From Schmidtea polychroa (Eukaryota): a stretch of 64,000 bases of DNA. Below the pieces are notes generated by a model. That model was not told the DNA's origin, did not search any database, and saw only the letters and a list, made by a program, of their open reading frames with translations. A program made the position numbers and the translations under genes. Positions 12,671 to 55,700 of the stretch are shown here, piece by piece. The stretch is taken from the NCBI GenBank assembly GCA_044892525.1, contig CM097887.1:88390397-88454396 (forward strand), read 5' to 3'. The stretch's first letter is position 1. Each line of letters begins with the position of its first letter.

Positions 12671-15600
12671 TTATTGCAAGGATCTCTCTAAAGCTTTCTG
12701 TAATGCTGTTTGCTCTTCTTTTGACAGGGTATTAATACAACTGGTAAAGCAATCTCGATTGACCTAAAGAATACCAAGATAATTGTCGCAATAATGAAAT
12801 TAACATTTTATAAACAAAATAAAAAGCAAAATGAGAACTCACCTGGACCATTTTGACTAAATTCATACACCGCCTAAAAGTTGGATGTTCCTCAGGCATT
12901 CCTTCCCTCATTAGACAATATGCAATTGATCGGATCACATGTGGTAAGTTATTACTGATGACCATGTTATTGGTTTCCGCTAAGTCGCACAGAAACCCGA
13001 AAACGTGAGGAGTCTCCTCACTGTCTTCCCATATCGGTAACCAGCTCAACCAAGTGGGCAGAAAAGCCCCTAAATCACCATTGGGAACACATTCTGGTCG
13101 ATATTTACAAATTTTCGATAATGCACTGATTGCATTTTCGGTGCTCGTGTTGAGCTCGTCATCTCTTGAACATGAAGCTTCAACAAGTTCAACGAGAACC
13201 GGCGCAGCCTCTCTCAGTACTTCGATGAATTCAACACCACCATACATTGCCATCAATCCAAACCCATAAATGGCAGCCTGGCGGATTTCCTTGCGTTCGT
13301 GCCTGAGACCATTGACCAATGCAGGCAAATAGTGTTGACAATACTGCCAACTGATCGATCCAACACTTTCAATCATGTCGTCCCAGAAACAGATGCAATA
13401 CTGGAAATCGGTCCATGGGCGGTCATTTTCCTGTAGTTTCATAACATTCGGGAGTAACTGGTCGAAAACTGGCAAAGCGTCCTCTTTGTACACCAGGAAC
13501 AGCGCGTGCATCAAATCCACTAACTTACACAGTACGTTGTCATCTTCATCCTTATCATTTTCCAGTTGTTCTTCGTCTTCCTCGTCGTATTCATCCGATT
13601 TTCTTTTCTCGGCTCTCGCGTCTTGATTCTTAAACATTTCCTCAAACTGTCCATTCATTATCCCAATCAATATTTCCATTCGTTCCCGACTGATCGATTC
13701 TCTACCCATTTTTTTGATACCTTCAGCAATCGCATCCATCATTTCAGCGATTTGAGCTTTATACGGTTCATCGGGGATTGCAATCAACAGGGCTGCAATC
13801 ATTCGATCCCAAAGAGCATTTGTCACGTTGGCACCCAACGGCCGACTACAGTCAATCAAAAACGGGATAATATCTGCAGCACTGCTTCGCACTTCCTCAT
13901 TGAAATAGAATTTCAGCAAAGGAATCATGATATCGGCGACCTGTAGCACATAGGGACAGAATGCATCCGACAACTCTCTGGCATAGCATACCAACATCTG
14001 GCAAGCAGTTGCTTTGTCTTCGAGTCCGCTTGTGTGGATCGCAAAATTCTGATCGTCAGCAATCTTAACGACTTGCCAATCTTTATCGATTTCTTCTGCT
14101 TCTTCGTTGTACATCATGCAGACATCCGGTCGAATGCTTGCGGTTTTCAGGACCGATTTCATGACGAGTGGAAGAAACTCAGCAAATGATTTACCGAGCA
14201 ATTTACACATCCGAGCCCAAGCACTAATCATGTAAGAGTGTTGTGGATCATCGGCGGGATTCGAGTTGTCATCGGTATCGTCATCGGTAGCGGTTTGTGA
14301 TTTCAACAGTAGCTGCATAACGTCTTGTGCGTCTGACATGAATCGATCCCGGCCGACAGCCAATCCCATCAATGAAATGCACTCGATAGTTTTCCCGCGT
14401 AACAAACGCAAATGTTCAGCATTGCACTGTTCCATGAGAAATTTGAGAAATTGCATGAATCCATCATAATAGGAAACAAAATTTTCCCCAACCGAATCGG
14501 CCACCGCGGCAATAGTTGTGACGATTTGTTCCAATACAAGTTTTCGGCCGCTCTGTACGAGTTCGTTGTATTTTTTCTGTAAAACAAGCAGCAACTTTTC
14601 AGTGAGCGCTGGCAAATAGTGGAGAATGACAGATTTCGGTGACGATTCACAGAAATTAACCATAGCTGCTCCAGCGTATGCTTGAACTCTGGGAAATTGA
14701 TCGTTATCTAATACCGATAACAAAGCCGGCACGATTTTCCCGTGATATGATTTCTGTAATTTGTGCCCGAAATCTGTCGACAACTGTCCGACAGCATTGC
14801 AAGCAGCATATCTCACCCGAGGATGCTCATCAGACAACAGTGGCACAATTTCATCGATAATTGATCCAAGAATTTCTTCCATTACTTTATTTAATCCTTC
14901 TGCACAAGATGAAATCGCCATCAATCCACCGTGACGATCTTTCCAATTGGCTGAAAGATGGATAATTGCAAATTTTCAAAGGCATTTCTGGCACTTACCA
15001 CTATGAAGCATAGCGGGAACCGTGCGAGTTATTTCATTCAATACCTTTCTACCTCGCATAGCGCATGCAATTCTATCCAGAGACATCTCAGCGATTATAC
15101 TCGGTGATGAATCATCTTCCTCCTCTTCAATATCCATTGTGGCCCATTCAGGATCGTCGTCAAGGTCTGTCAGCATCTAGTTGTATGGGAAAATTATCCA
15201 ATTTTCATAAAACTTATTTCAACAACTTTAAATAATATTTGAATAAATCCTTGCATATGGTTCGAGTACTTTCTAACAACTCCTGGACAATTTTCAGTCA
15301 ACGATACAAACACTTCAACCGCAAGATGCTTCTGTGATTCATCTACATTGACATTATGCAATATCTGAAAAATACAATATTGAAAAAATCAATAAATGTG
15401 CAACAGAGATAAAAATCTTTTATCGGTATTTATTACTATTTAAAGATAAATATCTATTATTTGTGTTGTCGATCTTAATAAAGATAAGACGAATGATTAT
15501 TTATCATTTTCGTAAATCTACTGACAAAATATTCAGTAGAATAATAACATAAAAATTTGTATTCAAAAGAAATTATGCAATGATCTATTAAATGAAACTA

Positions 15601-23540: not shown

Positions 23541-25214
23541 TGAGTATAAAAGCGACCGGCAAGTAAACAGAATTGCCAGTAGGTCGAAGAAACGTAAAGA
23601 AATAATCTAACGAGAGGAAGCAAAGGAAATTTGAACTTAGTAATAACTATATAGTTTTGAATCGAGCGTATCAGAATGAGGCATCTCCCGTCAAAAGATT
23701 AATCTCAGCGCAAGGTTCAGATTAATATTGAAAGGTGCAGATCAAAAGAGTTACTTAAAGTTATGGTTGTTTCATTAAAGAGTGTAATCGATAAAAGTGT
23801 AATTGTATTAGTCTCAAATAAAGATTATTGTGTGGGATTGTCTAACTTAATTTCAAAAAGGACGCAAAAGAGTCAGACCGGGATACAGACTTGAACAAAA
23901 TACCCAACAAAGGTATTGTATACAGCTATTATACAGTATAATTACGAATTTCAGGTTATTTATGATTTAATTTCAAAAAGTATAGATTTATTAATTTTCT
24001 TTCTAAATGCAAATAATTTCGGGAAACCTTTCTTATGTGATCGTAATAAATTCCTCCTTGTTCTATGATTTTGATAAATCTTTTTAATTAATTTTTAAAA
24101 ATCTAAAAATATTTAACCTTAAACTTATTATTTCCATTATACGTTACGTTTTTTGAATGCTTTTTGGTAATCTATCCTTATTTCTCGAATTTCTAAAAAT
24201 TTTTAAATTACAATGAATATGAATAGATAATAATTTACTGATGTTCATATTTATTCCCCCCCCCCCCCTACTCGCGAAAAGGTGAAATGTGATAAAGCGC
24301 TTGAAATATCCTGAAATTGCACATTTTTTATAAATAACAACGCTAGCAATAAATTATTATACCAGAAAATTTTGTTCACCTGTGTGTATTTTTTGTATAG
24401 GGTCGTTGTGTGTAGGGTATGTGTTTATATTTTATATTTCTCACCAAAATTATTTTTCTGCTTTTCTGCAGTAAATGTACTTCATTTATGCCGTTCGCTT
24501 ATAATTATTATTCATATTTCATGTAGGTATTTTTTTCGATATAGAAATTAATCGGGTTTTATAATACCTTAATTTGTGACTAAACGTACCATAATATTTG
24601 CGTTTTTGTATCCAGTGTAACTAGATTTTAAACACGCAGGTAAGTTGTTGTGTTGCCTAAATTATGAAATTTATTGATTGTTTTTAATTATAGAAAGTTT
24701 TATCTAAAATGTATACTGAGTGTACTACTTTCTTGATTTCTATAATAAAAGATGGTGTTCTTTGAAATAGCAAATATCAACACACAGGTAAGTTGGTCTG
24801 TTTATATAAAATAAAGTTATTGATATTATTGTTATATTATAGGTGATATTATCCCATGAAACCGAGGTATATTTTAAGGACATAAATACAAATTATTACA
24901 GCCTTTCTGTGAAATATATTTGTTATATACATTTTAAAAACAATGACTATTTTCAAAGATGTTTCATTCTTAATTTTCCATGTTTTGACAAATTTTAAAG
25001 TAATACTCATTTAATAAATAATCATTCTTAAATTATATTTTATTAAAAATCTTCAAACTCTAATTATTTTAATCTTAATTAAATATGCCATTGTATTTTC
25101 TAATGTAATTAACCGTAAAATATTAATTGTTTGTTTGTTTTCTATAGAATTCCCTACCGTTGGACCTAGGGTGCTGAAATTTTGCATGTGCCCCTCATTT
25201 GACTCGGGACAGGT

Positions 25215-26306
25215 TGTTGTGGTTGGCGTAGTCCTTTCTGGTGATTTGGCAATAGAATCATTTCTTTGACCATTATTCGAGAAAACGCTAAATAATTCTT
25301 CAGTTTTCTTTTTTTCTGGCTGATATAATGATGGATTTTCGCAATGAATTATTTTACAATGGGTAGTATTGAACAAAACCGCGTCACATTGTTTGTAGTC
25401 ACAACAATATTTAATACATTCGTCCCACTCATCTAGCATGATTATCTTTTGTATGATATTAGTTTTATTAACAAGACCAAATGGAAAGTGATTCAATAAC
25501 ACGATTTGTGAATACCTATCATCAGATGAATTAATATTCTTACATACTTCCTCCTTGTTCGAGGTTATGAAATTTAACAATATCAGTAATGTAAATAATT
25601 TTAAAATCATTTGAGAAGAAAAGTAATTAAATTCAATTTAAAGTCAGACAATTTATATAATAAATTCGATTTACACAATTTTTATTTAAATTACAATTTT
25701 CACTTATTTAAGTAAAACAAAAATATATTATAGAAACTATATAAAAAATGTAAATATAATCAGACCAGATAAACATATTCAACAGCCATTTCTCATTTAC
25801 AAAATGTTAACTAAATATAAATTGTCCATGAACCATTTTGACCATTGTCATTCGCATACAATATTTGAGGAAATGTATATCCTTTGCCGTTCTGATCCTT
25901 TTTTGCATTATCACATTGATCAGAATTTGTAAAGACGTGTGGTGGTTTGATAAAAAGATCTTTTCGGGTTCATATTATTGTTAGGATTTGTTCCGTATTT
26001 CGCGAATTGTAATGGATGAGGGTGTTGGTCTATGAGAGCCAACACTAAAACTATTGGGAGCCGAATACAGTTTATCTTGATAATGATAACATGGCATCGA
26101 ATTTGCTTTACTCGTCTGAGATTGATTAATAGAGCCTGATTGATAAGTAGAAGTATTAGCTGATCGCACGACTTTTGATTGACTATACTTGTGTTCTGTT
26201 TGGTCCTTATTCGTTGGTGACCGCGCATTTATATATAATATAATATAATATAATATAGTATAATAGGTATATAGATATTGTTAAGGCCGTGTAACGGCTC
26301 ACTACA
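25215..26306 (-). repeat. LTR copy (1092 bp), itself flanked by CAGGT on both sides
   Basis: Near-identical to 32585-33723 apart from about 5 substitutions and a 47-bp deletion. Confidence 0.9.
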
Positions 26307-26671
26307 CAGGTCATAGGCTATGTTTCACCCCCAGGTTACCCCTCCCCCCCCCCTAGGGTACCCTTAGTCGGTTTTTTTGTCTGTCCGGTCAGCAATTTAC
26401 CATATAAATAATAATTTATTATATGCTTGCTACTTGCAGTTGAAATAAATATAATTTAGTCAAAAGTTTTCAAAGCAGAATTCAAACATGGAGAATTTGA
26501 ATATTATTTGATTAGTGAACCAGTTTGCAATTGGAAAAATATTGCCAGTTATTTTTCGATTTAAATTGGAGTGCGTTTTCGATTTTACAAGTAGTGACAA
26601 TTTATCAAAGGTGGATAGTGTCTAAAAAGGAAATCGGCGATTGATGAATTAATTGATCACATGGAATAAAG

Positions 26672-29600
26672 TTAAGTGAATTTCAGCATCAGATGTGTCA
26701 AATTTTCATTGGAATAGACTCTGGCAAGTCTTGGAGGTTTGGAAATGTCTTCACCAATTTGGCGCACCCAAATCTTATCACTATGTTTCACATTTTTCGC
26801 GGTTCGCTGCTTGTCGGGTTTCGAAACTATTGAGCGAAGATTTAGTAGATTTGTTGTTGCTGGATGTGTATTCTCTGTAGCTAACTTTTCATCGCGTTGG
26901 TAGTTTGTGATCAAGGTACGCGCGATTTCGTTTGAGTCTGTGGCAGGTTCTACTGAAGGGTTTCCGTTCGACGTAGTTGGAATGGGTTCGACTGAGACTT
27001 TCTCTAAATCAGAGTGAAGTTTGTCTTCGTCCACGTCATCAGAAATCATGAAATTTATATTTTGGGTAACACCGTTAATAACGATGTGAGCATTGTTATC
27101 CTTAATGTCGATCAATTTGTAAGGCCCCGAATATCTCGGTTTGAGACCTGAATCCGTAATATTACGAAGATAAACGTGAGTTGCGTCCTTGAAGAACTTT
27201 GGGACGTACGGTGTGTATGAGGAAGCATACGAAAACTGTGGGTTGCTATCGATCGAAAGAAAATGATCTCTAGCCATATCTAATTCCTCAAAGGTAGGAG
27301 CGTTATCGAAATCAACTAATTCGTTAGGTAACGATGTTGAAGAACCGAAAAGTAACTGTGCCGGTGTAGTTCCGGTAGTCCTGGAGGGCGTGTTACGCCA
27401 ACCAAGAAGGACAAAAGGTAAAGCTTTAGTCCAATTAAGTCTCGATGAAAGTATTCCAAGAGAAGTCTTCAAAGTACGGTGAAATCTTTCGATCATGCCG
27501 TTTGTCTGAGGATGGTAAGCAGTTGAACGGAGGTGTTGTATACCGAGCTTTTCAGTTAGTTGTTGAAATAACTGGGATTCAAACTGAGATCCCCTTTCTG
27601 TGATTATTGATTTCGGAACACCGTATCTAGAAATCCAATGTTGCAAAATTGAATTTGCTACAATTTCAGCAGAAATGTTTTTTAGAGGAATAACTTCAAA
27701 CCAACGCGTTTTCCGGTCAATCATGGTTAATAAGTAAGAAAAACCGCGATCAGAAGGCAAGGTCGATGTGAAGAATTTCGAACCTATTTCCGGTCGGATA
27801 GTGAATCATCTGTGGATTAGTGTGTCTAGTGATCTTGTGTTGTTGACAACCGATGCACTGACTCACCCACAATTTCATATCGTGCCTCATTGCTGGCCAA
27901 ACCACATGTGAATGCAATAGGTTGAAGGTAGCCGACGAACCTGGATGATGTAAGTCGTGAATGGAGTGGAAAGCTAATTTCCGTAAGGAATCGTGCAAAA
28001 TCGGTCTTAAAACACCTGATAAAGACGAGTCAAAGTGTACTCCGTCCACGATTTCAAGCTTATCGCCAAAAGCAGCTAGATCTTTTGCCGAAGGTGGATT
28101 GTCGCGGAGGCACTGTACTGGAAATATCGGATCGTGCAATATAACGTTGGTGCTGCGGGAAAGACAGTCTGCAATAACGTTTTCTTTGCCGGCAATGTGG
28201 CGTATTTCGCAAGAAAATTCTGAAATATAACTGATTTGCCTCTGTTGTCGTGGAGATGGGTCTTTCATTCCAAAAAGATAAGTTAGCGGTTTGTGGTCAG
28301 TGTAGATGACAAAAGGACGACCTTCAAGCAAGTGCTTGAAATGTTTGATTGAAAGATATATGCCTAAGAGTTCTCGGTCGAAAGCCGAATATTTCCGTTG
28401 TGCGGAAGAAAGTTTCTTTGAGAAAAACTCTAAGGGTTCAGAAATGTCATTATGTAATTGGTGTAATACTGCACCAATAGCAACGTTTGATGCATCAGTG
28501 GTCAGACTCCAAGGTAAATCAGCATTGGGAAAATGGAGTGTTTGAATTTTCGAAAGTGCCGACTTAGCGTTTTCAAATGCACTGAGTGTGGTATCGCTCC
28601 ATGACACTAAAGACTTTTTTGGTTTTGAAACAAGACCTGAAAGAGGTGACAAAATGTCAGAAACCCCTGGAATAAAACGATGACAATAGTTTATCGTTCC
28701 CAAAAAACTTCTCAGTTGTGAAACTGTTTTTGGAAGTGGGAATTTGGCTATGGTATCTAGTCTATCCGGAGGAGGTCGGATTCCATCTCCGGAAATTAAA
28801 TGTCCCAGAAAACGAGTCTCGTGTTGGAAGAAGGTACACTTATCAACGTTTACCTTAAGGTTGTATTGCCGAAGTGCTGTTAAAGTTCTTGTCAGATGGG
28901 TTATATGCGTCTCTAAATCAGGTGATCCGATTAAAATGTCGTCTATGTAAGGAACTGCGAAAGGCAGGTCCATTAAGACTTGATCAATATACCTTTGAAA
29001 GGTCTGTGCAGAATTACGAAGGCCAAATGGCATATGCACGTACTCGAAAAGTCCGATCGGAGTTATTACGGCTGTTTTTTCTATGTCAGACTCTCGCACG
29101 GGTATCTGATGGTACGCCTTCACGAGGTCGATTGTGGAGAAAATCTTGCCTTTGAAAGACGGTGAAGGATATCACTAACAAGCGGCATGCTATAGGAATC
29201 ATGTACCGTAATAGCATTAAGGTTTCGATAGTCGCCACACGGACAGAAAGTGCCATCTTTTTTTGGGACCAGGTGCAATGGCGATGACCATGGAGATTTA
29301 GATCTCCGAATGGTACCCTCATGTAAGAGGTTAGTGAACTCGGAACGTACAAATTCGAGTTTTTCATTCGACAGTGGTCTAATTTTGCATCTAATTGGTA
29401 AAGATGAAGTTGTGTCGATCGTGTGGCAGTAAAGCGGCTTCGAAACGTCACTTATTGGCGTGTTAAAACACCTATTAATAATATCTAAGGCTATTTTTGG
29501 GTGTTCGATTGTTATAACCGTTTTCGACGGAGTAGTATATATATCGTCCGTTCCTATCCGTTGTGGATCTTCAAAGATGTTTGAGGGAATAGTGCTGCAG

Positions 29601-30004
29601 TTTAATTGGTTATTTATCCTTAAAGTGCGTCCACGGCAATCTACGAGTAGTTCGTTAGCGCTTAAAAAATCAGATCCTAATATGGGGATAATAACCTCTG
29701 CTATATAAAATTTCCACTCAAATAATTGGTCGGACAGAAATGGCAACGAGAAAGCAATTGTCTTTGAATCTAAAGTCTCAACAACACTACCGTTTGCGGC
29801 CTTCAAAGAAATATCGACAGTGTTGAGGTCTGGAAGGTACTCTTTAGGTAAGATCGACAAGCTGGAACCAGTGTCGACAAGGAATTTTAGTCTGTTGGAA
29901 GGAGACGACAATATATTAAAAGCGTTTGACTCTGCTTCTATTAAAAATAAATCTGATTTTGATGAAATTTTGCCTCCCACCTCTGCCGCTAGAAGTGGTG
30001 GCAT
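26672..30004 (-). pseudogene. pol: Pol (protease, RT, RNase H, integrase) broken by two frameshifts (~29130, ~27755)
   Basis: FLVDTGSS; KAYHQIP; YIDD; TTDASNVAIGA; FDRELL; YTDHKPL; IN core TMIDRKTRW...ERGSQF...MIERFHRTLK; GPY motif PRYSGPY. Confidence 0.93.
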
Positions 30005-30066: not shown

Positions 30067-32244
30067 TTAGGCTTTATCTCCAAACCTGTCGTGGTATATA
30101 CACTTGTCAAGTATCTGACAGGATGGTGCTTTGTCTCGCCAATTGCAACCTAGATGGCAGAACCGTGCCTTGTTACGAAACTTAAAATGGAAACGGCACA
30201 GGTTCCTGGTTGCAGGTGAACGTTGACGAGTATTTTGCACAAAGTGTGATTTTTGGGCATATTGCCTGTCGTCATTTGTCCGCCTGGTGGACATGCTATT
30301 CTCAAGCTCGCTGATGCGTTTATTGAGGCCTGTAATAGCGCAAAGTAAGGCTTCTTCGGTCGAAGGTTTTAAAGAAGAAGAAGAAGGTAAAATTTCGGGG
30401 TTAGTGCTGCTACTTAACTGCACAGAGCAAGTTGGTTGCGGACCAAGTGGCACGACTTCGTTAATCTTGTCGGCCATCTTTGCTAGCTCTACCACGTCTG
30501 CTGTTGACGAAAGCGCTAAAATTTGTTGTGCGTGTGGCGGTAAAGCAGACAGAAAAAATTGCCTCAAGAGTTTTTGATCCGCCGCAGCCTCCGGATGTAT
30601 TTGCGTTAGTTCCGCCATGGCGTGTTGCAAGAACTGTGATGGTTTCCTGCTGCCCAAAGTTTGCGTCTTAAAGTATTTAGTGAAGACGGCAGCTGTAGGT
30701 TCCTTAAAAATATCGAGGATTGCCGTACGCAATTCTTCATATGGGTTTTTAACGCTAGTAGGCGAAGTGCGAAGGATCACGGACGAAAGTTTACTTAATA
30801 TCGTCGGCGGAATCAACGGCAAGATGCGACAGTATTTGTCTCGTGAACTGGTTACCTCGATTCCCTCGAGTGCTAGTTCGGTAGCTATCAGCCAAGTAAG
30901 TGGAGAGTTATTCTCATCCAAAAAATATTGACATAAGTACGTTGATCGCTGGTTGTTGGACCTACGTTTATGTTTTGCCTGTTTGGGGTTGCTGCCTGAG
31001 TCATTCTCCGAATCGGAGGAACCGCCAGAAAGTTGCAACAAACAATGAATGACGCTGTATGGTGTCACTCCATAGTCGCCCAAGGAACGACTGTCGGAAA
31101 GGATGTTGCCGTTATACGACAAGAGAAAACGGCATTTGTGATTAGTCAATATGCTGTAATTTTTAGAAAGACCTTTAATTGTAGTCTCTGTGTCAACTGA
31201 AACGGTTTGTGTCTTATTTGTTCCAGGGTTTTCTATTAATATTTGGAACTTTTTGGGCCCCGGTGCGGCGCTACCCTCTCGTGTGGGCTGATGCTTATTT
31301 AAATAATTTATTATAATTTTATATATGATATCAATAATAATATAAATCAATAATAATATAGTATAATTTAATAATAATATAATAATATAATTTAGAGGTA
31401 ATCGATCTAAGGTACCTGGCGGTGCTGACACGGGCATTGCTTGATTGAGTCTCGATTCGCTGGGAGACGGTTTATTATCGTGAATAAATGGCTGTCCCGG
31501 TGCACGAGAGTTTAATGTGAAAAAATCATTATTCTGTTGCATTAAGAATTCATTTGGATTTGGTCGAAGCATGATGCGTTGTGGGGCTGTGTATAAGACA
31601 TCACTCGTTAGCAATTTGTTATTTGGTATATAATTGTTGATCGGAGTCATTTTTTTACGATTTTCAACGGCAATCATCTCAGCCAATGCTTGCCGGGAAA
31701 CATTAATCGAATCAAAATCTATATCGGCTGTATCTTTATATTTCTGATCGTAATGTGAATTCGGTTTCTCCGAGCCAAATATGCGATTTATATCCATTTC
31801 GTTTCGATCCTGATACTGACCGTAGTTAAGCACACCGTTGTTGTTTGCCTGTTGATTGATGTTGTGATCGTATGACTGATTATTATTGTTGTTATTCTTG
31901 ATTGCGGCGTGGTTTTGAGAATTTAACTGGCAGAAACTTTCCAGCAGAGAATTCGACGAACCAACTGAATTCAAACTGTTCATAAATGATTTCTGATCTG
32001 AAAGCCGTGACAGGGGAGATGTGGAATTCAGTGTACTGTGGAATTCAGTAATATCATTACCAGCTGAGCTATTGAAAGCACTGAATAGGGGAAATTCGGA
32101 TTTAGTATCCGATGATTCAGATTGTAATTGAATACTTTTACTGATAAATTTGAAAGACGATTTATTTATCGGGTCAGCAATTTGAAATTGAACATTTGGA
32201 ATATGATTATTATCTGATATTTGCAGGGGTCGAAATGGAATCAC
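30067..32244 (-). CDS. gag: Extended Gag ORF: Ser/Asn-rich region - hydrophobic helix (31389-31300) - ubiquitin-like domain (31248-31021) - Gag with CHCC knuckle
   Basis: 725-codon open frame (GTG start as called by the ORF track); Gag motifs LGSRKPSQFL, FLSALP, LAKMADKI, CRFHFKFRNKARFCHLGC; UBL tail LSDSRSLGDYGVTPYSVIHCLLQLSGG. Confidence 0.85.
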   Translation of the reverse strand: MIPFRPLQISDNNHIPNVQFQIADPINKSSFKFISKSIQLQSESSDTKSEFPLFSAFNSSAGNDITEFHSTLNSTSPLSRLSDQKSFMNSLNSVGSSNSLLESFCQLNSQNHAAIKNNNNNNQSYDHNINQQANNNGVLNYGQYQDRNEMDINRIFGSEKPNSHYDQKYKDTADIDFDSINVSRQALAEMIAVENRKKMTPINNYIPNNKLLTSDVLYTAPQRIMLRPNPNEFLMQQNNDFFTLNSRAPGQPFIHDNKPSPSESRLNQAMPVSAPPGTLDRLPLNYIIILLLNYTILLLIYIIIDIIYKIIINYLNKHQPTREGSAAPGPKKFQILIENPGTNKTQTVSVDTETTIKGLSKNYSILTNHKCRFLLSYNGNILSDSRSLGDYGVTPYSVIHCLLQLSGGSSDSENDSGSNPKQAKHKRRSNNQRSTYLCQYFLDENNSPLTWLIATELALEGIEVTSSRDKYCRILPLIPPTILSKLSSVILRTSPTSVKNPYEELRTAILDIFKEPTAAVFTKYFKTQTLGSRKPSQFLQHAMAELTQIHPEAAADQKLLRQFFLSALPPHAQQILALSSTADVVELAKMADKINEVVPLGPQPTCSVQLSSSTNPEILPSSSSLKPSTEEALLCAITGLNKRISELENSMSTRRTNDDRQYAQKSHFVQNTRQRSPATRNLCRFHFKFRNKARFCHLGCNWRDKAPSCQILDKCIYHDRFGDKA

Positions 32245-32980
32245 ATAGAACGACTACGGGATCCAAAAAATCACGATCTGGAATTGTCTGAATTAATTTG
32301 ATATACTCTTCTCGATTCGATGACAAACAGGAATGAGCAATTATCAAATGATCTATCAGCCTATCAATATCATGGGATATAGGATTAAATTTTGATGAAA
32401 GTTTTAATTCAGGAAATATTTTGGAAAGCGTATGGAACATATTTTGACGTAATTCCGCTGTTCGTTTATGAGAAACTAACATAGATTGTATTTCCTGTAA
32501 TCTGGATTTAGCAATGATATTAGCCGCTAAATAAGTTTCTAAATGTTCAAATCTTGAACATTGTTCTGGCACTTCTGACACCAATGTTGTGGTTGGCGTA
32601 GTCCTTTCTGGTGATTTGGCAATAGAATCATTTCTTTGACCATTATTCGAGAAAACGCTAAATAATTCTTCAGTTTTCTTTTTTTCTGGCTGACATAATG
32701 ATGGATTTTCGCAATGAATTATTTTACAATGGGTAGTATTGAACAAAACCGCGTCACATTGTTTGTAGTCACAACAATATTTAATACATTCGTCCCACTC
32801 ATCTAGCATGATTATCTTTTGTATGATATTAGTTTTATTAACAAGACCAAATGGAAAGTGATTCAATAACACGATTTGTGAATACCTATCATCAGATGAA
32901 TTAATATCCTTACATACTTCCTCCTTGTTCGAGGTTATGAAATTTAACAATATCAGTAATGTAAATAATTTTAAAATCAT
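32210..32980 (-). CDS. Secreted MANEC/MANSC-domain protein starting within the LTR
   Basis: Signal peptide MILKLFTLLILLNFITS; Cys pattern C...C-x3-CC-x4-C-x9-C-x4-C-x5-C; Thr-rich RTTPTTT; frame continues through the LTR end and PBS. Confidence 0.8.
   Translation of the reverse strand: MILKLFTLLILLNFITSNKEEVCKDINSSDDRYSQIVLLNHFPFGLVNKTNIIQKIIMLDEWDECIKYCCDYKQCDAVLFNTTHCKIIHCENPSLCQPEKKKTEELFSVFSNNGQRNDSIAKSPERTTPTTTLVSEVPEQCSRFEHLETYLAANIIAKSRLQEIQSMLVSHKRTAELRQNMFHTLSKIFPELKLSSKFNPISHDIDRLIDHLIIAHSCLSSNREEYIKLIQTIPDRDFLDPVVVLCDSISTPANIR
32570..32583 (-). promoter_or_regulatory. Primer-binding site, tRNA-Leu type
   Basis: TGGTGTCAGAAGTG one base after the LTR-terminal CA; complementary to the ...CACTTCTGACACCA 3' end typical of tRNA-Leu. 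Confidence 0.8.
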
Positions 32981-33723
32981 TTGAGAAGAAAAGTAATGAA
33001 ATTCAATTTAAAGTCAGACAATTTATATAATAAATTCGATTTACACAATTTTTATTTAAATTACAATTTTCACTTATTTAAGTAAAACAAAAATATATTA
33101 TAGAAACTATATAAAAAATGTAAATATAATCAGACCAGATAAACATATTCAACAGCCATTTCTCATTTACAAAATGTTAACTAAATATAATAATTTCATA
33201 TAGTCCGATTATTTCTAAAGATTTTACAGCCTGCCGATTTGTCCATGAACCATTTTGACCATTGTCATTCGCATACAATATTTGAGGAAATGTATATCCT
33301 TTGCCGTTCTGATCCTTTTTTGCATTATCATATTGATCAGAATTTGTAAAGACGTGTGGTGGTTTGATAAAAAGATCTTTTCGGGTTCATATTATTGTTA
33401 GGATTTGTTCCGTATTTCGCGAATTGTAATGGATGAGGGTGTTGGTCTATGAGAGCCAACACTAAAACTATTGGGAGCCAAATACAGTTTATCTTGATAA
33501 TGATAACATGGCATCGAATTTGCTTTACTCGTCTGAGATTGATTAATAGAGCCTGATTGATAAGTAGAAGTATTAGCTGATCGCACGACTTTTGATTGAC
33601 TATACTTGTGTTCTGTTTGGTCCTTATTCGTTGGTGACCGCGCATTTATATATAATATAATATAATATAATATAGTATAATAGGTATATAGATATTGTTA
33701 AGGCCGTGTAACGGCTCACTACA
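32585..33723 (-). repeat. 5' LTR (1139 bp)
   Basis: TG...CA termini, followed by PBS, outer CAGGT TSD; AATAAA on minus strand at 33056-33051. Confidence 0.92.
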
Positions 33724-34505
33724 CAGGTCATAGGCTATGTTTCACCCCCAGGTTACCCCTCCCCCCCCTAGGGTACCCTTAGTCGGTTTTTTTGTCTGTC
33801 CGGTCAGCAATTTACCATATAAATAATAATTTATTATATGCTTGCTACTTGCAGTTGAAATAAATATAATTTAGTCAAAAGTTTTCAAAGCAGAATTCAA
33901 ACATGGAGAATTTGAATATTATTTGATTAGTGAACCAGTTTGCAATTGGAAAAATATTGCCAGTTATTTTTCGATTTAAATTGGAGTGCGTTTTCGATTT
34001 TACAAATTGAAATTTATTTTGAAAGCTTTTCTTATTGTGAATTAAACATGGAATTGAAGCTGTTATAAAATTAATACTGAAACGTAATAACATCATTAAA
34101 CAAAAAATTAATTTAAAAGAATTATTATAATAAATGTAAACTCAGGCGAAGCCGGGTACAACAGCTAGTATATTATAAATAAATAAATCGATCCCTAAAT
34201 TGTTTAGTAAAGGTTAAATATGAAGGAAATTTGTTAATTTCAAAAGATTCTAAATCTCAAACGGTTTGACTGGCTACTTTTATATAAACAATTTATAATA
34301 AACAAAACGTTAACACTTTGCATCATTTAGAAAATATAATTTTTATGTTCAAATTCTGTTTACTAAATATTTATATTGTGACATCCTGTCTTCGATCAAA
34401 CTTCAGCTTATTGCATAGGTTATATAAATGGTATTTTTCTCATAAATTTAAGTACAAAGTGGTGACCATCGTCCGATCTAGCAACCGACCTTCAAAACAA
34501 ATCGA

Positions 34506-46700: not shown

Positions 46701-49700
46701 CAGTAAAAATAAAATTTACTGAACTTCTTACTATTTTAGCTAAATACTATTTATAAAACTAAGCAATAAAGAACAAGTCATAGCACGTTAACAATCGCCG
46801 GCTCACTTTCAAAAATAATCTCATGACTCATGAGACCAGAGTTACCAACTTAACAGAGATACTTTTGAAATAAATCTCATAGTCTGGCAACCTATCACAA
46901 GTCTATGCAGAGGGCTCGACTATGTTGGTACGAAATATTTGAGTAGAATTACACACTGGTCTTAGTGACATTTTTATAGTCAATTTCCTGTTGATTTTTA
47001 TAAATTATTAGTAATTAGACCGATTTTAAATAAAAAATTAATTTTATAACAAATCGCTTTACGTGCTTAGTGATTCGGCTTCGCGTTCCAAGTTTGGCAC
47101 ACGTGCCTTAGGTTGCCAATCCCTGATTTAGACAATGCCTACTGAATGAATTCAAGAAAGATAATAACAATTTTATTGGCATCTACAGGGCCACGTGGAT
47201 CAGTTTCGAATAATAACAGTTTGTCCATTTCAATATCATGAGATAATGCCATCCTTGAACGAAATTGAATGAAATCAGGATATGGAATATAATTTTTATT
47301 GTAATATGATAGCGCTATCATTGAACAACCTAATGATCGCATCTCCGCCGATTGGGTATAGAGCTTATTAATATCCGCGATAGAACGACATATTATGTCA
47401 CAAGGCATTTTATATCCAATTTTAGATTTAAATCGAGCTGCTTCCACTTGTGCACGACATACGTGAGATCGACAATCAGGGATCATACCAGTCATAACAC
47501 CTCCAGTACTTTCAGTAATATTAAACAATCTTGTAGCTGAACTCTTCTCAATCATTTTATCTGGAACCTTTCTTTGTGTAGCTACTACACCATAATTATT
47601 GCCTCGAATACCAACGGAAAGCAATCCATCTAATGCCATTGCCTTAAATGCATATTCGACTTGGAATAATCTCTTTTCAGTTGTCAGAACAATCTTCGCT
47701 TCCATATTTCCGATTTAAAAAATCCACAATTCCAGAATTCGAAAATTTACCCGTAAAACAAAACGACAAATAATTTTTCTCGCGTCTGTGTGCGCACACC
47801 AACAATACTCGATCAAATAATACTGCGCACACAGACGCGATACAGAAGACTCCAAACAACTGCCAGTCCAGAGGCAATCCCCCTCTGATTGGTCGAAACA
47901 CCTACAGTTACTAGTAAATGCATACATTAAATAAATCATTCAGGCAAAGTATACAAATTGAAAGGCAATAGGAAAAAAATGATCTTACATTAAAAACAAT
48001 ATACTTCGTAATTCTAAATGTCACTCTAGTATATCATATTGTAATAAATAATTTTTTGTAAGACTTTTATTTTAATTGTTTCTTAATGATTTCACATCGT
48101 CAGTTAACAGCATTTACGATTGCAAAACTTGTAACATTAAAGTTATTAAATCAATATTTAAACGATATAATATGCATTCTGTTGCTACTTTGTATGCATT
48201 TACTAGTGATTGTATACTTTAACTGAATTTAAAACTTTAACTGTAACATAACTACTAAATAACTTCTAAATTTAAAATTATATCTCAATCAACATTAAAA
48301 CCATAAAAAACAAATGGCATTTAATTCGTCCTTGATCTTTCATGGGATCCAAACCAATAGAAAATTTAAAAGTTTTAAAATGAAGAAATTTAAACATTTG
48401 TTGGGTTAATAATTAGTAAGTTAGTTAATTTCTGACTCCTCGTATTCCCTTTTATAAATATATTGACTAAGACCAAATACAGAACAAATTTATTGACTCT
48501 AAATATAATTTACAAAATCGTCACAATGTTTGATCTCTTCATTCAATACAAATTTTTACACTTTAGGCATAAAACCGAATGAATAATCTATTTTATGGAT
48601 ACATCTATTTTAGTGAAGAACTCGAATACAATTATTTTTGCCTCCTCCACTGTTTTTATCTTTTTGACACTAACTTTATTTTTGATTTCTTCTACCAACT
48701 GGAAATTCATCTTTTTTCAACTCTCGTCTTATACTGTTGAATAAATGATGATTTGATTGATATCGGCCGAATTTTCCCGAATTTTGAGCCTGATTGTTAT
48801 AATAATAAATTAATTCGTCCGTCTTTTCACTTTACACCTGAGCGGTTTTATCAACAATTATTATGGTGACTATTCAGGGTTTCTACATAGTTGGGCTCTT
48901 TAAACCGTGGGTGAAATACCTGTTGATTTAAATTATTTAATCATTGTACATATTTTACATAAAATATTATTTAGATCTATATTACTTAGCGTTTATAACA
49001 TATCTATACAAGTTATACATGCTACTCTTAACCAATATTATATTTTTACGCTCAGTATTCAAGAAGATGCATATTTATTAGCAGAGGACAGTCAAGGTTT
49101 ATTCATGAATTCTTTTACTTACACCTAATCTAAATACTTTAAAATATTGGCAATTAGAATGTTAAATTCTTTTATTTTTTGTTTATATTGAAAGAATTTC
49201 TAAATTTGACACTTTTAATGATGATCCCTTTTTCTAGATTTTGCTTGGAAATAGTACAAAAACTCGAAATGATTTGCAAACAATGATTTTAATAACCGAT
49301 GAACAAATTTCGAGAGACAAAAAATTTAAATATTCTGATGTCATAAAAGCATTGAAAAAGTCGAATATTATCCTTCATGTATTCTCCTTCAATAACAAAT
49401 CGGATTCGACTCTAAGGAAATTAGCCAATAGTTCAGATGGAAGTTATGCAAGATTATTAGGAAACTTTTCGTTTGATAAAATCTTTATGAAATTGTTACT
49501 GAAAAATAAAACAAAAAACTTGAATAAGGTAAGTCTTGTATATTACTTAAATAATTATCTGATCCCATTTACAAATTTCTAGTCACCTTTTATCAAATTT
49601 AAGTAATTTGCTTTCGATAGTTTTGTATATTTAATATACGACTGGGCTTCCTACTCCAAAAGTTTCATCATGTACTTTGCGTTTCACAGTTAAACTATTC

Positions 49701-52700
49701 CTCTTTATACATTTTTTAGCGAGCTAGCCCTCAAAATACATAATATTGTAAGCCTTTAAATAATTGGATAAATTCAGTTATCAAAGAAGATTTAAAAAAC
49801 TGACTTTCTCAAACCGGAAAATATGACACATCCTCTCACGTATTGCATCATCTATCAATCTAAGTACATTTATTATCTATACATTAATCTATTTATTATT
49901 TGTGTTAAAATACTCACGCATGAAATACAGCATATAGCAGTACCACATTTAAACGAAATAAAGCAAATTCATACATTCAAATGTGTAGAACTATTATATA
50001 TATAATAGTAACTTTCTTTCAATAATAAATTAGCCGCTGTACTGAAGAATAAGAAATATAGTTTTCAACCTCTAACTAGAATGCTTTAATCTTATTCACT
50101 TCTTTTTTCATAGAACCCACCCTNNNNNNNNNNNNNNNNNNNNNNNNNNNNNNNNNNNNNNNNNNNNNNNNNNNNNNNNNNNNNNNNNNNNNNNNNNNNN
50201 NNNNNNNNNNNNNNNNNNNNNNNNNNNNNNNNNNNNNNNNNNNNNNNNNNNNNNNNNNNNNNNNNNNNNNNNNNNNNNNNNNNNNNNNNNNNNNNNNNNN
50301 NNNNNNNNNNNNNNNNNNNNNNNNNNNNNNNNNNNNNNNNNNTAATATTGTATTTTCTGAAGATATTTACTTTAATCTTTATTAAGAAAATTGAGTTATT
50401 GCTCAATGATAAATTATACAAATACTCTTATAATGTGACTTACCAAAATAATCTTACAACTGTCAATGTAAATATAAAAAAGAAAATAAGAAAGTATATG
50501 GTAAAAATGTCCAATAAATCAGGATTAGATATATTACCAGTATCAACAAATCTTATCAACAAAGAAACACAGTTAGTGTTTGAAATANNNNNNNNNNNNN
50601 NNNNNNNNNNNNNNNNNNNNNNNNNNNNNNNNNNNNNNNNNNNNNNNNNNNNNNNNNNNNNNNNNNNNNNNNNNNNNNNNNNNNNNNNNNNNNNNNNNNN
50701 NNNNNNNNNNNNNNNNNNNNNNNNNNNNNNNNNNNNNNNNNNNNNNNNNNNNNNNNNNNNNNNNNNNNNNNNNNNNNNNNNNNNNNNNCAAAGATTAAAA
50801 ACCCCAATCCAAGTAATTATATAAAATTTATAGTTCCGATGTTAAAGATCAAGTTTATAGCAGCTTTATTTGTTGAATTTATGTATATTTCATTTGCTAA
50901 ATATTCATATGAAGTTAAATCTAGTTTATTTTATAATATATCACTAAATAAATGTGAGGAAGATTTAATTATTAGCACAATATAATATTATAATAATAAA
51001 TTACATCTGAATTATTACTATTAAGAAATTAACATATACATATATTAAAGTATTATATTCGTATTATATTATGGCGTACATAATTATTATTGTTATTTAG
51101 AAATGCTTAATCGTCAATTTAATGATTTGTTTAGTCAAACCGATATTGTTATAATTTTTTGAATATAATTTGAATTCGACTTCTAGTTTTATTTAACATG
51201 GCGACCCTGGCAATAGTGAATAAGATGATTCCGGATGTTTACGACGGAAGACACGAAATCGAAACTTTCATTGAAGAATGTAAGCGATATTTTCAGTTAT
51301 GTGGGTTAGATCAAGATAACCAAAATATGATGATAAAATGCCTTATTTCAAGAGATATTTTACCGATTTATGAAGCCGTCGATGTCAAATTTATTAATTT
51401 TGAAGATAGACTCAGAGAAGCTTTCAAGAAGCCGTCAACACTGATAGGCGATTTTCTGAACTTATACAATTATGAGAAAGATAACGATGCAGCGCCAGTG
51501 TTTTTCGAAAAGATTGAGAAAATGGTCGACAAAGTATTGAAACACAAGTGGGATAAAAACGAATTAGTCGCTTATTTTTTGATACATTGTGTCAAAGACA
51601 AAGAAATCCAAAAAGAGATCAAGATGCGAGATGCTTTAAAAGTCGAAGAGATCAAGGACGTAATTCGTAAAGTTGATGCTATCAACATTGAAGTTTCTAG
51701 TATTGCAGTTATGCAAAGAAAAGAAACGTTCGCAAACGTAATAAAGAAACGACAAGGATTTGCCGATATACAAGATCGACAACGCAATTTTTCGAATGTT
51801 CAAGAAAGACGAAATTTTGAACCAAGATTCAATTCTATTCCGCACGCTCAAAGCTTCGATTCTGGAAGGAATACTAATCAACAGTATTACCATAGAGACA
51901 ACAGAGCAAGTGGAAGTCGCGTTGTTACATGTTGGAATTGTCAAGAACTAGGACATTCGAGTCGAGAATGCCCAAAAAAGAAGTGTTATGGATGTGGAAA
52001 AGAAGGACACATGATTAGAGAATGTAAAAATAACAAGATAAATTCAGAATTGAGATGCAACGCTTGTAAGGAATCTGGCCATCACCGGGGAGAATGTCCA
52101 TCGATTTCATGCTCAGGATGTGGAAAACGTGGTCATTTGCGGTTTCAATGTTGGGGAACAGCAGACACACGATCATCAGGAAGAAACCAATCTAGAAATT
52201 ACGAGGATAACAGACGATATCAAGACAGATATGCCGATGGAAGAGTGGCAGCTATGGAAGACCGCGGAAACGAAGCGGAGGATTCTCAGTCTACCCGAAG
52301 TGATGGACACCCAAATGGGAGGGCTCCGTCATTAGGCGAGATGATAGGAGCCATGCATTAAAAGGTAATAATGATGATTGTGTGCGCCAAGATAAGTATA
52401 GTATATTTTTTAATAATAATAGTAATAGTAATTTAGACAGTATGTATAATTTTAAAAGTAGTAATAATAATTTAGACAGTATATCTAAATCAAATTTAAA
52501 GGTAAAAAATATTAGATTTAAATCAGATGTAATTTTAGAAGATAGTATTAAAAACGTGAAAAGTAAATTAAAAAAATATGATGTAATAAAGGAAGATAAT
52601 CAGAGTAACAGTAAGATTATATATGACGTAAGAGATAAAACTGATATTAATGATTGTAATTGGATGCGTGATAAAATTAATGTAATTGAAAATAAATGTG

Positions 52701-55700
52701 ATCAGAATTGTAAGAAGATAATAAGTATTTGTGAGGCAAAATTAATAAATAGCAGTAAAAGGTTTGTTTATGACGAAACATTGGATAAACATATAAATAA
52801 TATTTCTGTTTTAAATGACGATTTAGAAATTGTATATGATAAGATGGGTGGAAGACCAAGCGTAATAGTTGGGATTAATAGGATTTATTTCAAACATTGT
52901 CTATTGGATACGGGGGCTAGAATGAATGTAATAGATAGCTCGATCATCAAAGAAATAGGTGAGATATATATTAAACCTCACAATGAAGGAATTTGGTGTG
53001 CAAATGGCAGTCCATTGGAAACATTTGGCAATGTTAAATTGAAGATTCAAATCGGTAACAAAGAAGAGAATGTGATTTTTGTTGTTGTTAAAAAGGTTTC
53101 ACCGTCAATTATTGGTGGGATAGATTTACTTCGTCAATTCAACATCAAGTTAATGAAAATAAACGATAGTATAACTGAAAATACGGAAATAGAAAATAAT
53201 TTTAATGAAATTTGTAATATTGAGGCAAGATTTAGCAACTCATATAATGATGAGAAAAGATTTAGTCGAGCAATAAAATTATTTGATTTAAAAAAAGGAG
53301 ATAAAATGTATCAGATAATTAATGAAAATAAAGAAGTTTTTATGGCTGATAAATGGGACATTGGAAAAACAGATTTATTATGGCACGAAATCAAAACTAC
53401 TGAGGGCCCAATTTACATGAACCCTAGACGACAACCGGCTCATTTAGAAGAAAAAATTGAGGCTATAAAAAATTTGGAAGAAAATGGTATTATTAGGAAA
53501 TGTGATTCGAGTTGGAATACTCCATTGGTATGTGTTTGGAAAAAAGAAAAGAATGACATCAGATTGTGTTTGGATTTTAGAAACCTAAATAAAATAACAG
53601 AAAGACAAATATTTCCAATGCTTAATATTGAACAAATGTTAGATTCACTCAATGGATCCAAGTTTTTTAGTACTATAGATCTTGGAAGTGCATATTATCA
53701 AGTGGAGTTAACAAATAATTCACAAGAAAAAACCGCATTTTCAACAAGGAGCGGACAGTACTGTTTTAATAGAATGCCTTTTGGAATTGCTGCGGCACCG
53801 GCTACATTTCAAAAACTAATGAATATGGTTTTAGGAAAACGTCTGTGGAATACAGCTATTGTATATTTGGATGACATATTAATATTTTCTACAAATAAAG
53901 AAGAGCATTTTAAAAGAATAAATGAAGTATTAATGAAAATTAAGGAAGCGGGATTACGAGTAAATCCAGAAAAATGTATATTTTTAACAAATGAGACAAA
54001 ATCTTTAGGCCATATAATTAATAATGAAGGTGTGAAAGTGGATGAAAATAAAATTGAAGCAATTAAAAATTTTGTAAGACCTCAATGTTTGAAACAACTA
54101 AGAAGTTTTTTGGGGTTGTGTAATTATTATAGAAAATTTATAAAAAATTATTCAATGTTTTCACGAATATTAGAGTCTATATGTGGTACGACTAATGAAA
54201 AACTTATATGGTCAGAAAAATGTGAAGAAGCATTTGAAGAATTAAAAAATGCATTATCGAAAACACCAGTATTAATATACCCTAACTTTCAGAAAGAATT
54301 TATTTTGGACACTGATGCAAGTTTTGACACAATTGGTGCGGTTTTATCACAGTTAGACAAACAGGGACATGAGCGAGTAATTGCATATGGTTCGCATTCA
54401 ATGAATAAGCATGAAATAGGTTATTGTATAACAAGGAAGGAGTTATTGGCCATTTATTATTTTACTCAACATTTTAAACATTATTTGTATGGGAAAAAAT
54501 TTAAATTAAGAACGGACCATAAAGCAATAACATTCATGATGGCAACAAAAAAGCCAATCACGGCACAATTCCAAACTTGGATAAATTTTCTTAGCAGTTT
54601 GGATATGGATATTTCATTTAGAAAAGGTATGGAACATACCAATGCAGATGCATTATCCCGAGATAAGTGTGGACGATGTACTCAATGTATGGAAGTTCAT
54701 GAAAATCCTAAAACAGAAAAAATGAAAACAAGACTTTTAACAATGACAGCTGTTAAGCAAGGTGTGATTTGGCAAAAGGGTAATGTTGAGATAGAAAATC
54801 AAAAAGAATTAATCATGAAAAATGTAAAAACTAAATTTAAGATTGATGATGATGTTATCATGACAAAAGAAAATAAAATTTGGATTCCTAAAAACAATCG
54901 CGAAAAATTTATCAAAGAAATGCATAAAATCCTATGCCACGCAGGTTGCAAAAAAGTGATTGACTACATAAAAGTAAATTATGACATGGATGAATTACAA
55001 ATGATAACTACAGAAATTATTCAAAATTGTGAATTATGTCAAAAAAGAAAAACACTAACAACTAAAACAAAGGAAACTATACTAAAAACGGAAGTGTCGA
55101 AACCGTTTGAAACAATTGCTATAGATTTTTGTGGACCTTTGAAAACAAGTGTACATGGGAAAAAGTATATTTTAGGAATTATTGATATGTGCACTCGATA
55201 TATTTCTCTTACAGCAGTTTCTAAGCAAGATGAGAAAACAACAGCGGACACAATAATGAAATTTTGGATTCTAAAATACGGTTCTCCTAGGATAATTCAA
55301 GTAGATTGTGGGAAGACATTTGAATCAGGTGTGATGAAAGAATTAGCTAAAACCCATAACATAATGCTTCAATTTTCAAGTCCATACCATCATAGTGCAA
55401 ATGGATTAATAGAACGGCAATTTCGAACAATAAGAGATTTCATGAGTACCTCAATTAAAGATAGATTAAAAAGCAATTGGGTAGAGGTATTACCAGAAAT
55501 TGAATTTGCTTTGAACGCAACCGTACAAAGTACATTAGGGAAAAGTCCAGCGGAAATAGTATTTGGGTTTCGAATAACAAGAGAATGGCAAAACAAAAAG
55601 GAAGTTACTAATGACCGAATTAGAATCATTGAAGAGATACAAGAAAAGCAAAGAAATGTTAAGTACAGAAACGCAGATAGAATTAATAGAGAATTTAAAA

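Follow-up and report, generated by a model that had tools for sequence, protein, structure and literature searches.

Why should the long terminal repeat (LTR) of a retrotransposon carry the start of a protein with a host-like, Cys-rich domain? The question is raised by an open reading frame (ORF) of 256 amino acids on the minus strand (32210..32980) of a 64,000-nt stretch of Schmidtea polychroa DNA from contig CM097887.1, hereafter the window. The ORF starts in the 5′ LTR of a Ty3/Gypsy element and runs on through the LTR end and the primer-binding site (PBS). An interpretation made from the letters alone (the sequence-only reading) took it for a stand-alone secreted accessory protein with a MANEC domain. 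Our data indicate that the ORF is instead the N-terminus of gag in a frameshifted copy. This MANEC front consists of the spliced exons 1 and 2 of a KIAA0319-like host gene, probably gained when the exon-2 donor was spliced to a cryptic acceptor in the LTR, 44 bases short of its end. Coordinates are those of the window, with the element on the minus strand, and donor loci are given as genome contig and Mb; the genome searched comprised 781 Mb with four large contigs.

The host front and its donor gene

The 256-amino-acid ORF is real, with a hydrophobic, signal-like N-terminus (hydropathy 2.0-2.5 in 9-residue windows over residues 1-17) and a Cys-rich domain. Its ATG lies inside the LTR, 396 nt before the LTR end (32585) and downstream of an AATAAA at 33056-33051. 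The LTR end and the PBS are translated as T-T-L-V-S-E-V, so that the frame crosses the att end and the PBS, and 124 codons of the ORF lie past the LTR end. All this agrees with the sequence-only reading. Its assignment of the domain to the MANEC/KIAA0319 type also held: the KIAA0319_N profile (PF23597) matched residues 52-106 (32663..32827) above its cut-off in Pfam (E 5.6e-8; 32.9 bits, cut-off 27), whereas the MANEC profile (PF07502) stayed below its own (E 0.0085; 16.8 bits, cut-off 25.5). The stop at 32210 comes after a frameshifting indel near 32,220, seen in comparison with at least seven of eight other copies. The window copy is frameshifted there and near 29,140 and 27,760, and the 256-amino-acid protein is therefore a truncated Gag, a by-product of a later frameshift.

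The first 117 codons of the ORF correspond to two host exons in spliced form. A genome search with the MANEC stretch, in which 40 of 107 candidates were scored, gave at least 21 matches at 99-100% and one split match at C4:69.36 Mb, which bears out the host origin proposed earlier; two of the 21 matches belong to a region of contig C29 that is a 99.9% duplicate of the window. At the C4 locus a 47-nt GT..AG intron interrupts the sequence, and this intron is absent from the LTR. The exons downstream gave weak EGF-like matches, a K319L PKD match (E 3e-10) and a TM-like exon, a content that fits a KIAA0319-like gene. RNA-like contigs, from runs guessed to be RNA, remove the 47-nt intron and run from exon 2 into exon 3. 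The captured piece begins at 33051, where the AATAAA ends, and reaches as far as 32629, the exon-2 donor; it comprises about 70 nt of 5′ untranslated region (UTR) followed by spliced exons 1 and 2.

LTR and donor differ by 12 substitutions in 352 coding nt. Part of this difference is allelic, because a contig running on into host exon 3 carries three of the 12 as well. In four contig sets at the donor locus, the three contigs passing the end of exon 2 all enter host exon 3 and none enters the LTR tail; as contigs drop rare forms, this result speaks neither for nor against trapping. In one contig, possibly an assembly mosaic, exons 1-3 are joined to LTR-like letters. About 5.5 kb before the exon-2 end, just upstream of the donor gene, lies an intronless ORF (L101), which from its motifs we take to encode a Rho-family GTPase.

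A fixed junction joins different host genes

The MANEC front occupies a slot that other LTRs of the family fill differently. In a survey of sister copies, searches listed 87 exact matches for the LTR end and 68 for the PBS stretch; most of these sequences were fetched. Sister LTRs have their 5′ part in common and differ in the sequence before the LTR end: positions 1-680, which take in the putative U3 (33067..33723), are 92-96% identical among the MANEC, ENGase, PP2C-like and isochorismatase (ISOC) types. The donor of the ENGase type is a GH85 locus at C1:266.5 Mb, and one intron has been lost from the captured copy. The PP2C-like type has lost two introns; its label is our assumption from a motif, with no Pfam support. 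The ISOC type holds another host front, and in the PIAS-like type two internal host exons, spliced, are placed behind the ISOC front. The PIAS-like donor exons are present twice in the genome, about 102 kb apart (C1:206.90 and 207.01 Mb; L254, L255). The donor of the DDX6-like type is an intronless helicase gene (DEAD match, E 1e-33), presumably related to DDX6. In the 'MFPF' type, the last 76 nt, including the first 21 nt of the tail, match a host exon at C4:25.44 Mb, and this match rules out a purely element-native U5. That exon adjoins a weak PDE match (E 5.6e-4, under the cut-off), and no exon upstream of it was found within 10 kb. Short-word homologue searches returned nothing for the PP2C-like and MANEC fronts or for the ubiquitin-capsid region described below; a HMMER search gave 58 distant unnamed matches, mostly long proteins with several matched stretches.

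The 3′ borders of these pieces are not scattered. The KIAA0319-like, ENGase, PP2C-like (long form) and PIAS-like fronts each stop at an exon end with a GT donor in phase 1, and all four exon ends join one identical base, 44 nt before the LTR end. This base opens the LTR tail (32585..32628) and would be the first base of a splice-acceptor exon. At a fifth junction, 132 nt were removed in frame between a cryptic GT in the DDX6-like segment and the same base. Exact exon ends were found in four of the six captures with a known host frame, with the cryptic donor in addition, and the rough chance of four exact ends, frame allowed for, is ~1e-7. Such a common junction base at exon ends is the signature of exon trapping by splicing, and a splice event would account for it.

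Two fronts also bear on the acceptor. The DDX6-like front was joined at a microhomology of 6 nt, and with it came a pyrimidine-rich AG immediately in front of the fixed base. The PIAS-like exon ends in CAG, and therefore an AG was restored at the junction; CAG precedes the fixed base in four PIAS-type LTRs (five pattern matches, of which one is unrelated). The AG is absent at the junction in the MANEC, ENGase and PP2C-like types, and an indirect sign of acceptor use comes from a single LTR, L196. The ISOC front was joined mid-exon at an 8-nt microhomology. At the upstream border, the host piece starts at or just past an 18-nt unit that contains the AATAAA (33049..33066) and stands once or twice in tandem, depending on the type, just 5′ of the host segment. 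This unit may be a short R, and the position of the border is as would be expected from a jump of strong-stop DNA to the RNA 3′ end.

Exchange may also reach the other half of the LTR. Some LTRs hold a host mRNA 3′ end in U3, with a lipin LNS2 domain (E 5e-51) and an apparent 3′ UTR (L084:1213-1671; C4:89.84 Mb), and both LTR halves are therefore exchangeable. The first ~50 nt of the LTR (33715-33665, minus strand) may resemble a planarian spliced leader. An open frame of about 85 codons follows them, and U3 itself may be an old captured mRNA front.

Reading frame and selection in gag

An in-frame Met lies within the LTR in 56 of 62 typed PBS-bearing copies. Of the non-MANEC copies, 50 were fetched over a length of 2,620 nt or more; 23 of these kept gag open for at least 850 codons past the PBS, and the long gag frames end where pol begins in the -1 frame. 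The internal region is thus kept, with 23 of all 54 typed copies open through gag. Where the host frame of a capture is known, in six cases, it agrees every time with that of gag (by chance, (1/3)^6 = 0.0014); the 'MFPF' type is not among these six.

Selection on the captured codons was estimated from the 21 MANEC copies, which hold 15 nonsynonymous and 3 synonymous distinct changes (287 and 64 sites). This ratio equals the neutral expectation (binomial p = 1.0). The sequence-only reading had named free mutation of Cys codons as evidence against itself, and free mutation is what we observed: two of the 15 nonsynonymous changes fall in Cys codons (Cys85Phe and Cys96Tyr). The latter is the change of the eighth Cys that had already been noticed in the 3′ LTR of the window element. 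Three copies have an indel in an A run, and no stop substitution was found in the MANEC stretch among the 21 copies. The MANEC codons, cysteines included, evolve neutrally. Over five fronts, the pooled LTR-versus-donor ratio was 0.37, a value that includes host-side change.

Further into gag the pattern changes at one point. With the window copy as reference, and counting substitutions common to at least two copies, a class that also holds the private changes of the window copy, dN/dS was 1.69 in the first 110 codons after the LTR, 0.67 in the N/Q-rich leader and 0.59 in a ubiquitin-like domain (PF00240, E 5.3e-8 in Pfam). After the Gly-Gly end of this domain, which is present in 56 of 56 copies, it fell to 0.06 in the linker, 0.10 in the capsid and 0.07 in the reverse transcriptase (RT). 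These values fit a likely release of the capsid from any leader at Gly-Gly by host deubiquitinases. A hydrophobic segment 5′ of ubiquitin is found in most copies (19-residue mean 2.67); combined with the signal peptide of the MANEC front, this segment is predicted to allow a type I membrane precursor whose capsid would lie in the cytosol. A single-sequence fold of the ubiquitin-capsid region was of low confidence (pLDDT 57.6) and had no structure match at E <= 0.001; its weak matches included the MLV capsid CTD (probability 0.96, E 1.6) and HIV CA.

Structure of the element and other features of the window

The 5′ LTR is 1,139 bp long (32585..33723, TGT...ACA), and the family copies start at 33723. 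A target-site duplication (TSD), ACCTG, stands on both sides of the element (33724-33728 and 25210-25214). The 5-bp TSDs are identical in 10 of 13 paired copies, and the LTR pairs of the 13 copies are 0-6 substitutions apart. The window element is a copy of a young Gypsy LTR family. Behind the frameshift, the rest of gag (30067..32253) continues in a shifted frame with the neutral leader, the hydrophobic segment (~31389-31333), the ubiquitin-like domain (Gly-Gly end at 31021) and a DUF7041 capsid-like region (~30909-30700). Profile matches place pol in three pieces at 26672..30004, in which the Pfam order of protease, RT, RNase H and integrase is that of Ty3/Gypsy; the frameshifts near 29,140 and 27,760 lie here.

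The 3′ LTR (25215..26306) has 1,092 bp and differs from the 5′ LTR by a 47-bp deletion and six substitutions, Cys96Tyr being present in this copy. Before it, about 281 bp of the 5′ flank (26307..26590, copied from 33724-34004) replace the last ~130 internal bases of the family, and the same is seen in the C29 duplicate. At the place of a polypurine tract, family copies have only a short purine run, and flank DNA replaces it in the window copy. Because the flank was copied too, the direct repeat in the window measures about 1,420 bp. Duplication of host DNA of a non-LTR kind was considered for this repeat, and was ruled out by the 21 near-identical genome matches and by the TSDs, which define the 1,139-bp LTR. 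The flank copy was probably a post-insertion conversion event. The flank repeat itself (33724-34004) is presumably part of a DINE-1/Helentron-type repeat.

The PBS (32570..32583), which is translated in frame, is complementary to the 3′ end of a tRNA-like gene with a long variable arm that sits in tandem tRNA arrays. The primer is likely of the Leu isotype; ARAGORN called no anticodon. One such array (C2:73.95-74.09 Mb; L290, L291) has a unit of ~733 bp with Gly, Gln and likely Leu genes, and the primer tRNA end has 2,274 matches genome-wide. In four copies, L017 (C1:26.388 Mb), L009, L061 and L222, the PBS is extended to 18 nt, and in L017 the extension reaches tRNA T-loop sequence, as if reverse transcription had copied the primer. 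One element has a PBS after both LTRs. Contig C309 (L089) holds a head-to-tail tandem array of the element with LTRs in common; the LTR there is of a shortened type of 783 bp.

A second, unrelated Gypsy element lies at 50952-56119 (plus strand). Its 247-bp LTRs are identical, and its gag ATG (51198) falls on the last base of the 5′ repeat. The window also contains an importin-5-like intronless ORF of 729 amino acids (12732-14921, minus strand), a proteasome alpha fragment (47139-47705, minus strand) and a C-terminal fragment of a cytochrome P450 (6268-6714, plus strand).

Discussion

A sequence of events that would give rise to the MANEC front begins with an acceptor-bearing copy in a host intron, or with element RNA spliced in trans. 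The resulting RNA would carry the host cap, 5′ UTR and exons, and then the tail, the PBS, gag-pol and U3-R. Phase-1 donors alone would put the host ATG in the gag frame, and therefore only RNAs from such donors would make Gag-Pol and be packaged. Minus-strand strong-stop DNA would then copy the host exons and jump to the RNA 3′ end just past the AATAAA. This jump would write the host front into both new LTRs as U5, and the rewritten LTR would spread. The leader would likely be disposable, and if the ubiquitin Gly-Gly lets host enzymes release the capsid, only the reading frame would be constrained. The DDX6-like and isochorismatase fronts would have been gained by template switching at microhomologies instead.

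Several observations weigh against this sequence of events. Gag is open in none of the four MANEC-type copies (Fisher p = 0.13 against the 23 of 50 other copies), and a working signal peptide would route Gag into the endoplasmic reticulum. As the four copies lack an open gag, the MANEC type may move in trans. The ubiquitin-like domain ends in LSGG or LFGG, unlike the canonical LRGG. A look for element remnants at the donor loci gave none in ~30 kb around the KIAA0319-like gene and, in 22 kb of the ENGase locus, nothing but one 79-nt match of 76%; a cis insertion must therefore have been lost or never fixed. Both surviving long-form DDX6-type LTRs have GG, not AG, at the acceptor. The MANEC junction, taken alone, is explicable if a microhomology of 6 nt was combined with slippage by 6 nt while a PIAS-type template was copied. 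At the PP2C-like and PIAS-like junctions, each taken singly, microhomology with the next host exon may also have played a part.

In a different account, all captures arose by switching of the RT to co-packaged host mRNA at microhomologies during strong-stop synthesis, with no splicing onto the element. Template switching is the published route for LTR-mediated retrocopies (PMC5131818). It explains the DDX6-like junction (an intronless gene, with 6 nt in common), the isochorismatase junction (mid-exon, with 8 nt in common) and the short PP2C-like form, an in-frame deletion of 45 nt between repeats, and it probably explains all upstream junctions at the AATAAA. The lack of an element in the donor introns checked also agrees with it. 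As the source of every capture we nevertheless consider it unlikely: at four host exons and one cryptic donor the host sequence breaks off precisely at GT and continues with one and the same base, and KIAA0319 exon 3 has 1 nt in common with the tail and the inferred next ENGase exon none. A still less probable account keeps splicing and moves it in trans, with the donors of host pre-mRNA joined to an unpaired, outron-like acceptor near the 5′ end of element RNA. Its junction signature would be identical to that of trapping in cis, and it would leave no insertion remnant, in agreement with two donor loci. Spliced-leader trans-splicing has been reported in free-living flatworms (PMC12582326). 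Equally, insertions into host introns that were rare and never fixed would have left nothing behind.

The proposal that the LTR encodes a secreted 256-amino-acid MANEC accessory protein kept by selection is the most improbable of the three. The signal-like N-terminus, a domain that is intact in most copies and free of stops among the 21, and the broken gag frames downstream in all four MANEC-type copies would agree with it. On the other hand, amino-acid change is neutral even at Cys85 and Cys96, and unrelated genes fill the slot in sister types. Moreover, the position of the break in gag varies, at 118, 124, 226 and 528 codons counted from the LTR end, and therefore no common secreted product has been kept. 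The interest of the arrangement lies less in a secreted protein than in an exon trap, active across the family, from which Gag obtains its start.

The sequence-only reading called a coding constraint across the att site and the PBS unusual. For the layout of the frame yeast Ty1 offers a precedent: its Gag starts inside the 5′ LTR and its PBS is translated. Unlike Ty1, which has its own fixed start sequence, the S. polychroa family would start Gag in an exchangeable host exon. The closest published case is the non-LTR SVA_F1/MAST2. In Damert 2018 (PMC6139936), SVA_F1 (MAST2 exon 1) and the chimpanzee pt_SVA_D6 (STK40 exon 1) are described as exon-trapping subfamilies, and an earlier 5′ transduction is suggested to supply the next acceptor. 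As there, a subfamily here appears to have been founded by a host exon spliced to an element acceptor, and the DDX6-like and PIAS-like segments appear to supply the next one. SVAs are non-LTR, L1-dependent, non-coding and non-autonomous, whereas the present element is an LTR element with gag-pol; its host exons stand in both LTRs and would give an in-frame Gag start, and a single acceptor appears to have served four genes or more.

LTR-mediated retroposition (Tan et al. 2016, PMC5131818) resembles our case in the intronless host pieces within LTR elements, the chimeras of several genes and the microsimilarity at some junctions. There, the retrocopy replaces internal ORFs; here, gag-pol is kept, the LTR holds the cargo, and the majority of 3′ junctions fall at exon ends and not at microhomologies. 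A review (PMC13317346) covers the BARE-2/Veju template-switch chimeras, in which foreign sequence likewise enters the LTR via reverse transcription and founds a subfamily; BARE-2 took its promoter from another retrotransposon, unlike the translated host exon seen here. PMC4558846 reports the opposite arrangement, with a splice donor in the LTR joined to an acceptor in the host, and the accessible portion of PMC13524379 contains no description of a host-exon U5 and Gag start. In the literature outside subscription papers and supplements, we found no published description of a Gag start supplied by a host exon in the LTR.

Whether origin by splicing can be extended to the whole Gypsy family is less certain. 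We suggest, tentatively and at somewhat short of even confidence, that the family is a self-renewing natural gene trap. With no fixed start of its own, it would obtain a 5′ UTR and the start codon of Gag from any host gene that happens to be spliced to the U5 acceptor, renew the acceptor when a trapped exon ends in AG, and shed the leader via ubiquitin; a membrane-anchored Gag precursor of the MANEC type would be possible. If host starts are trapped in this way, the LTR types would record genes expressed in the cells in which transposition took place.

Founding of subfamilies by exon trapping is known for non-LTR SVAs, and gene capture by LTR elements is usually put down to template switching in the internal region. 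Our study points to an LTR family in which gag-pol was kept and U5 was rewritten again and again with host exons in spliced form, attached at one base, with selection on the frame alone, so that U5 and the Gag N-terminus would be almost wholly replaceable. The fixed junction offers a short, testable acceptor. Genome annotation calls for caution, as 'secreted MANEC genes' and ENGase- or ISOC-like fragments in this genome can be LTR passengers. For the organism, such a family would offer a means of shuffling exons, and through it host 5′ UTRs and signal peptides could reach dozens of loci.

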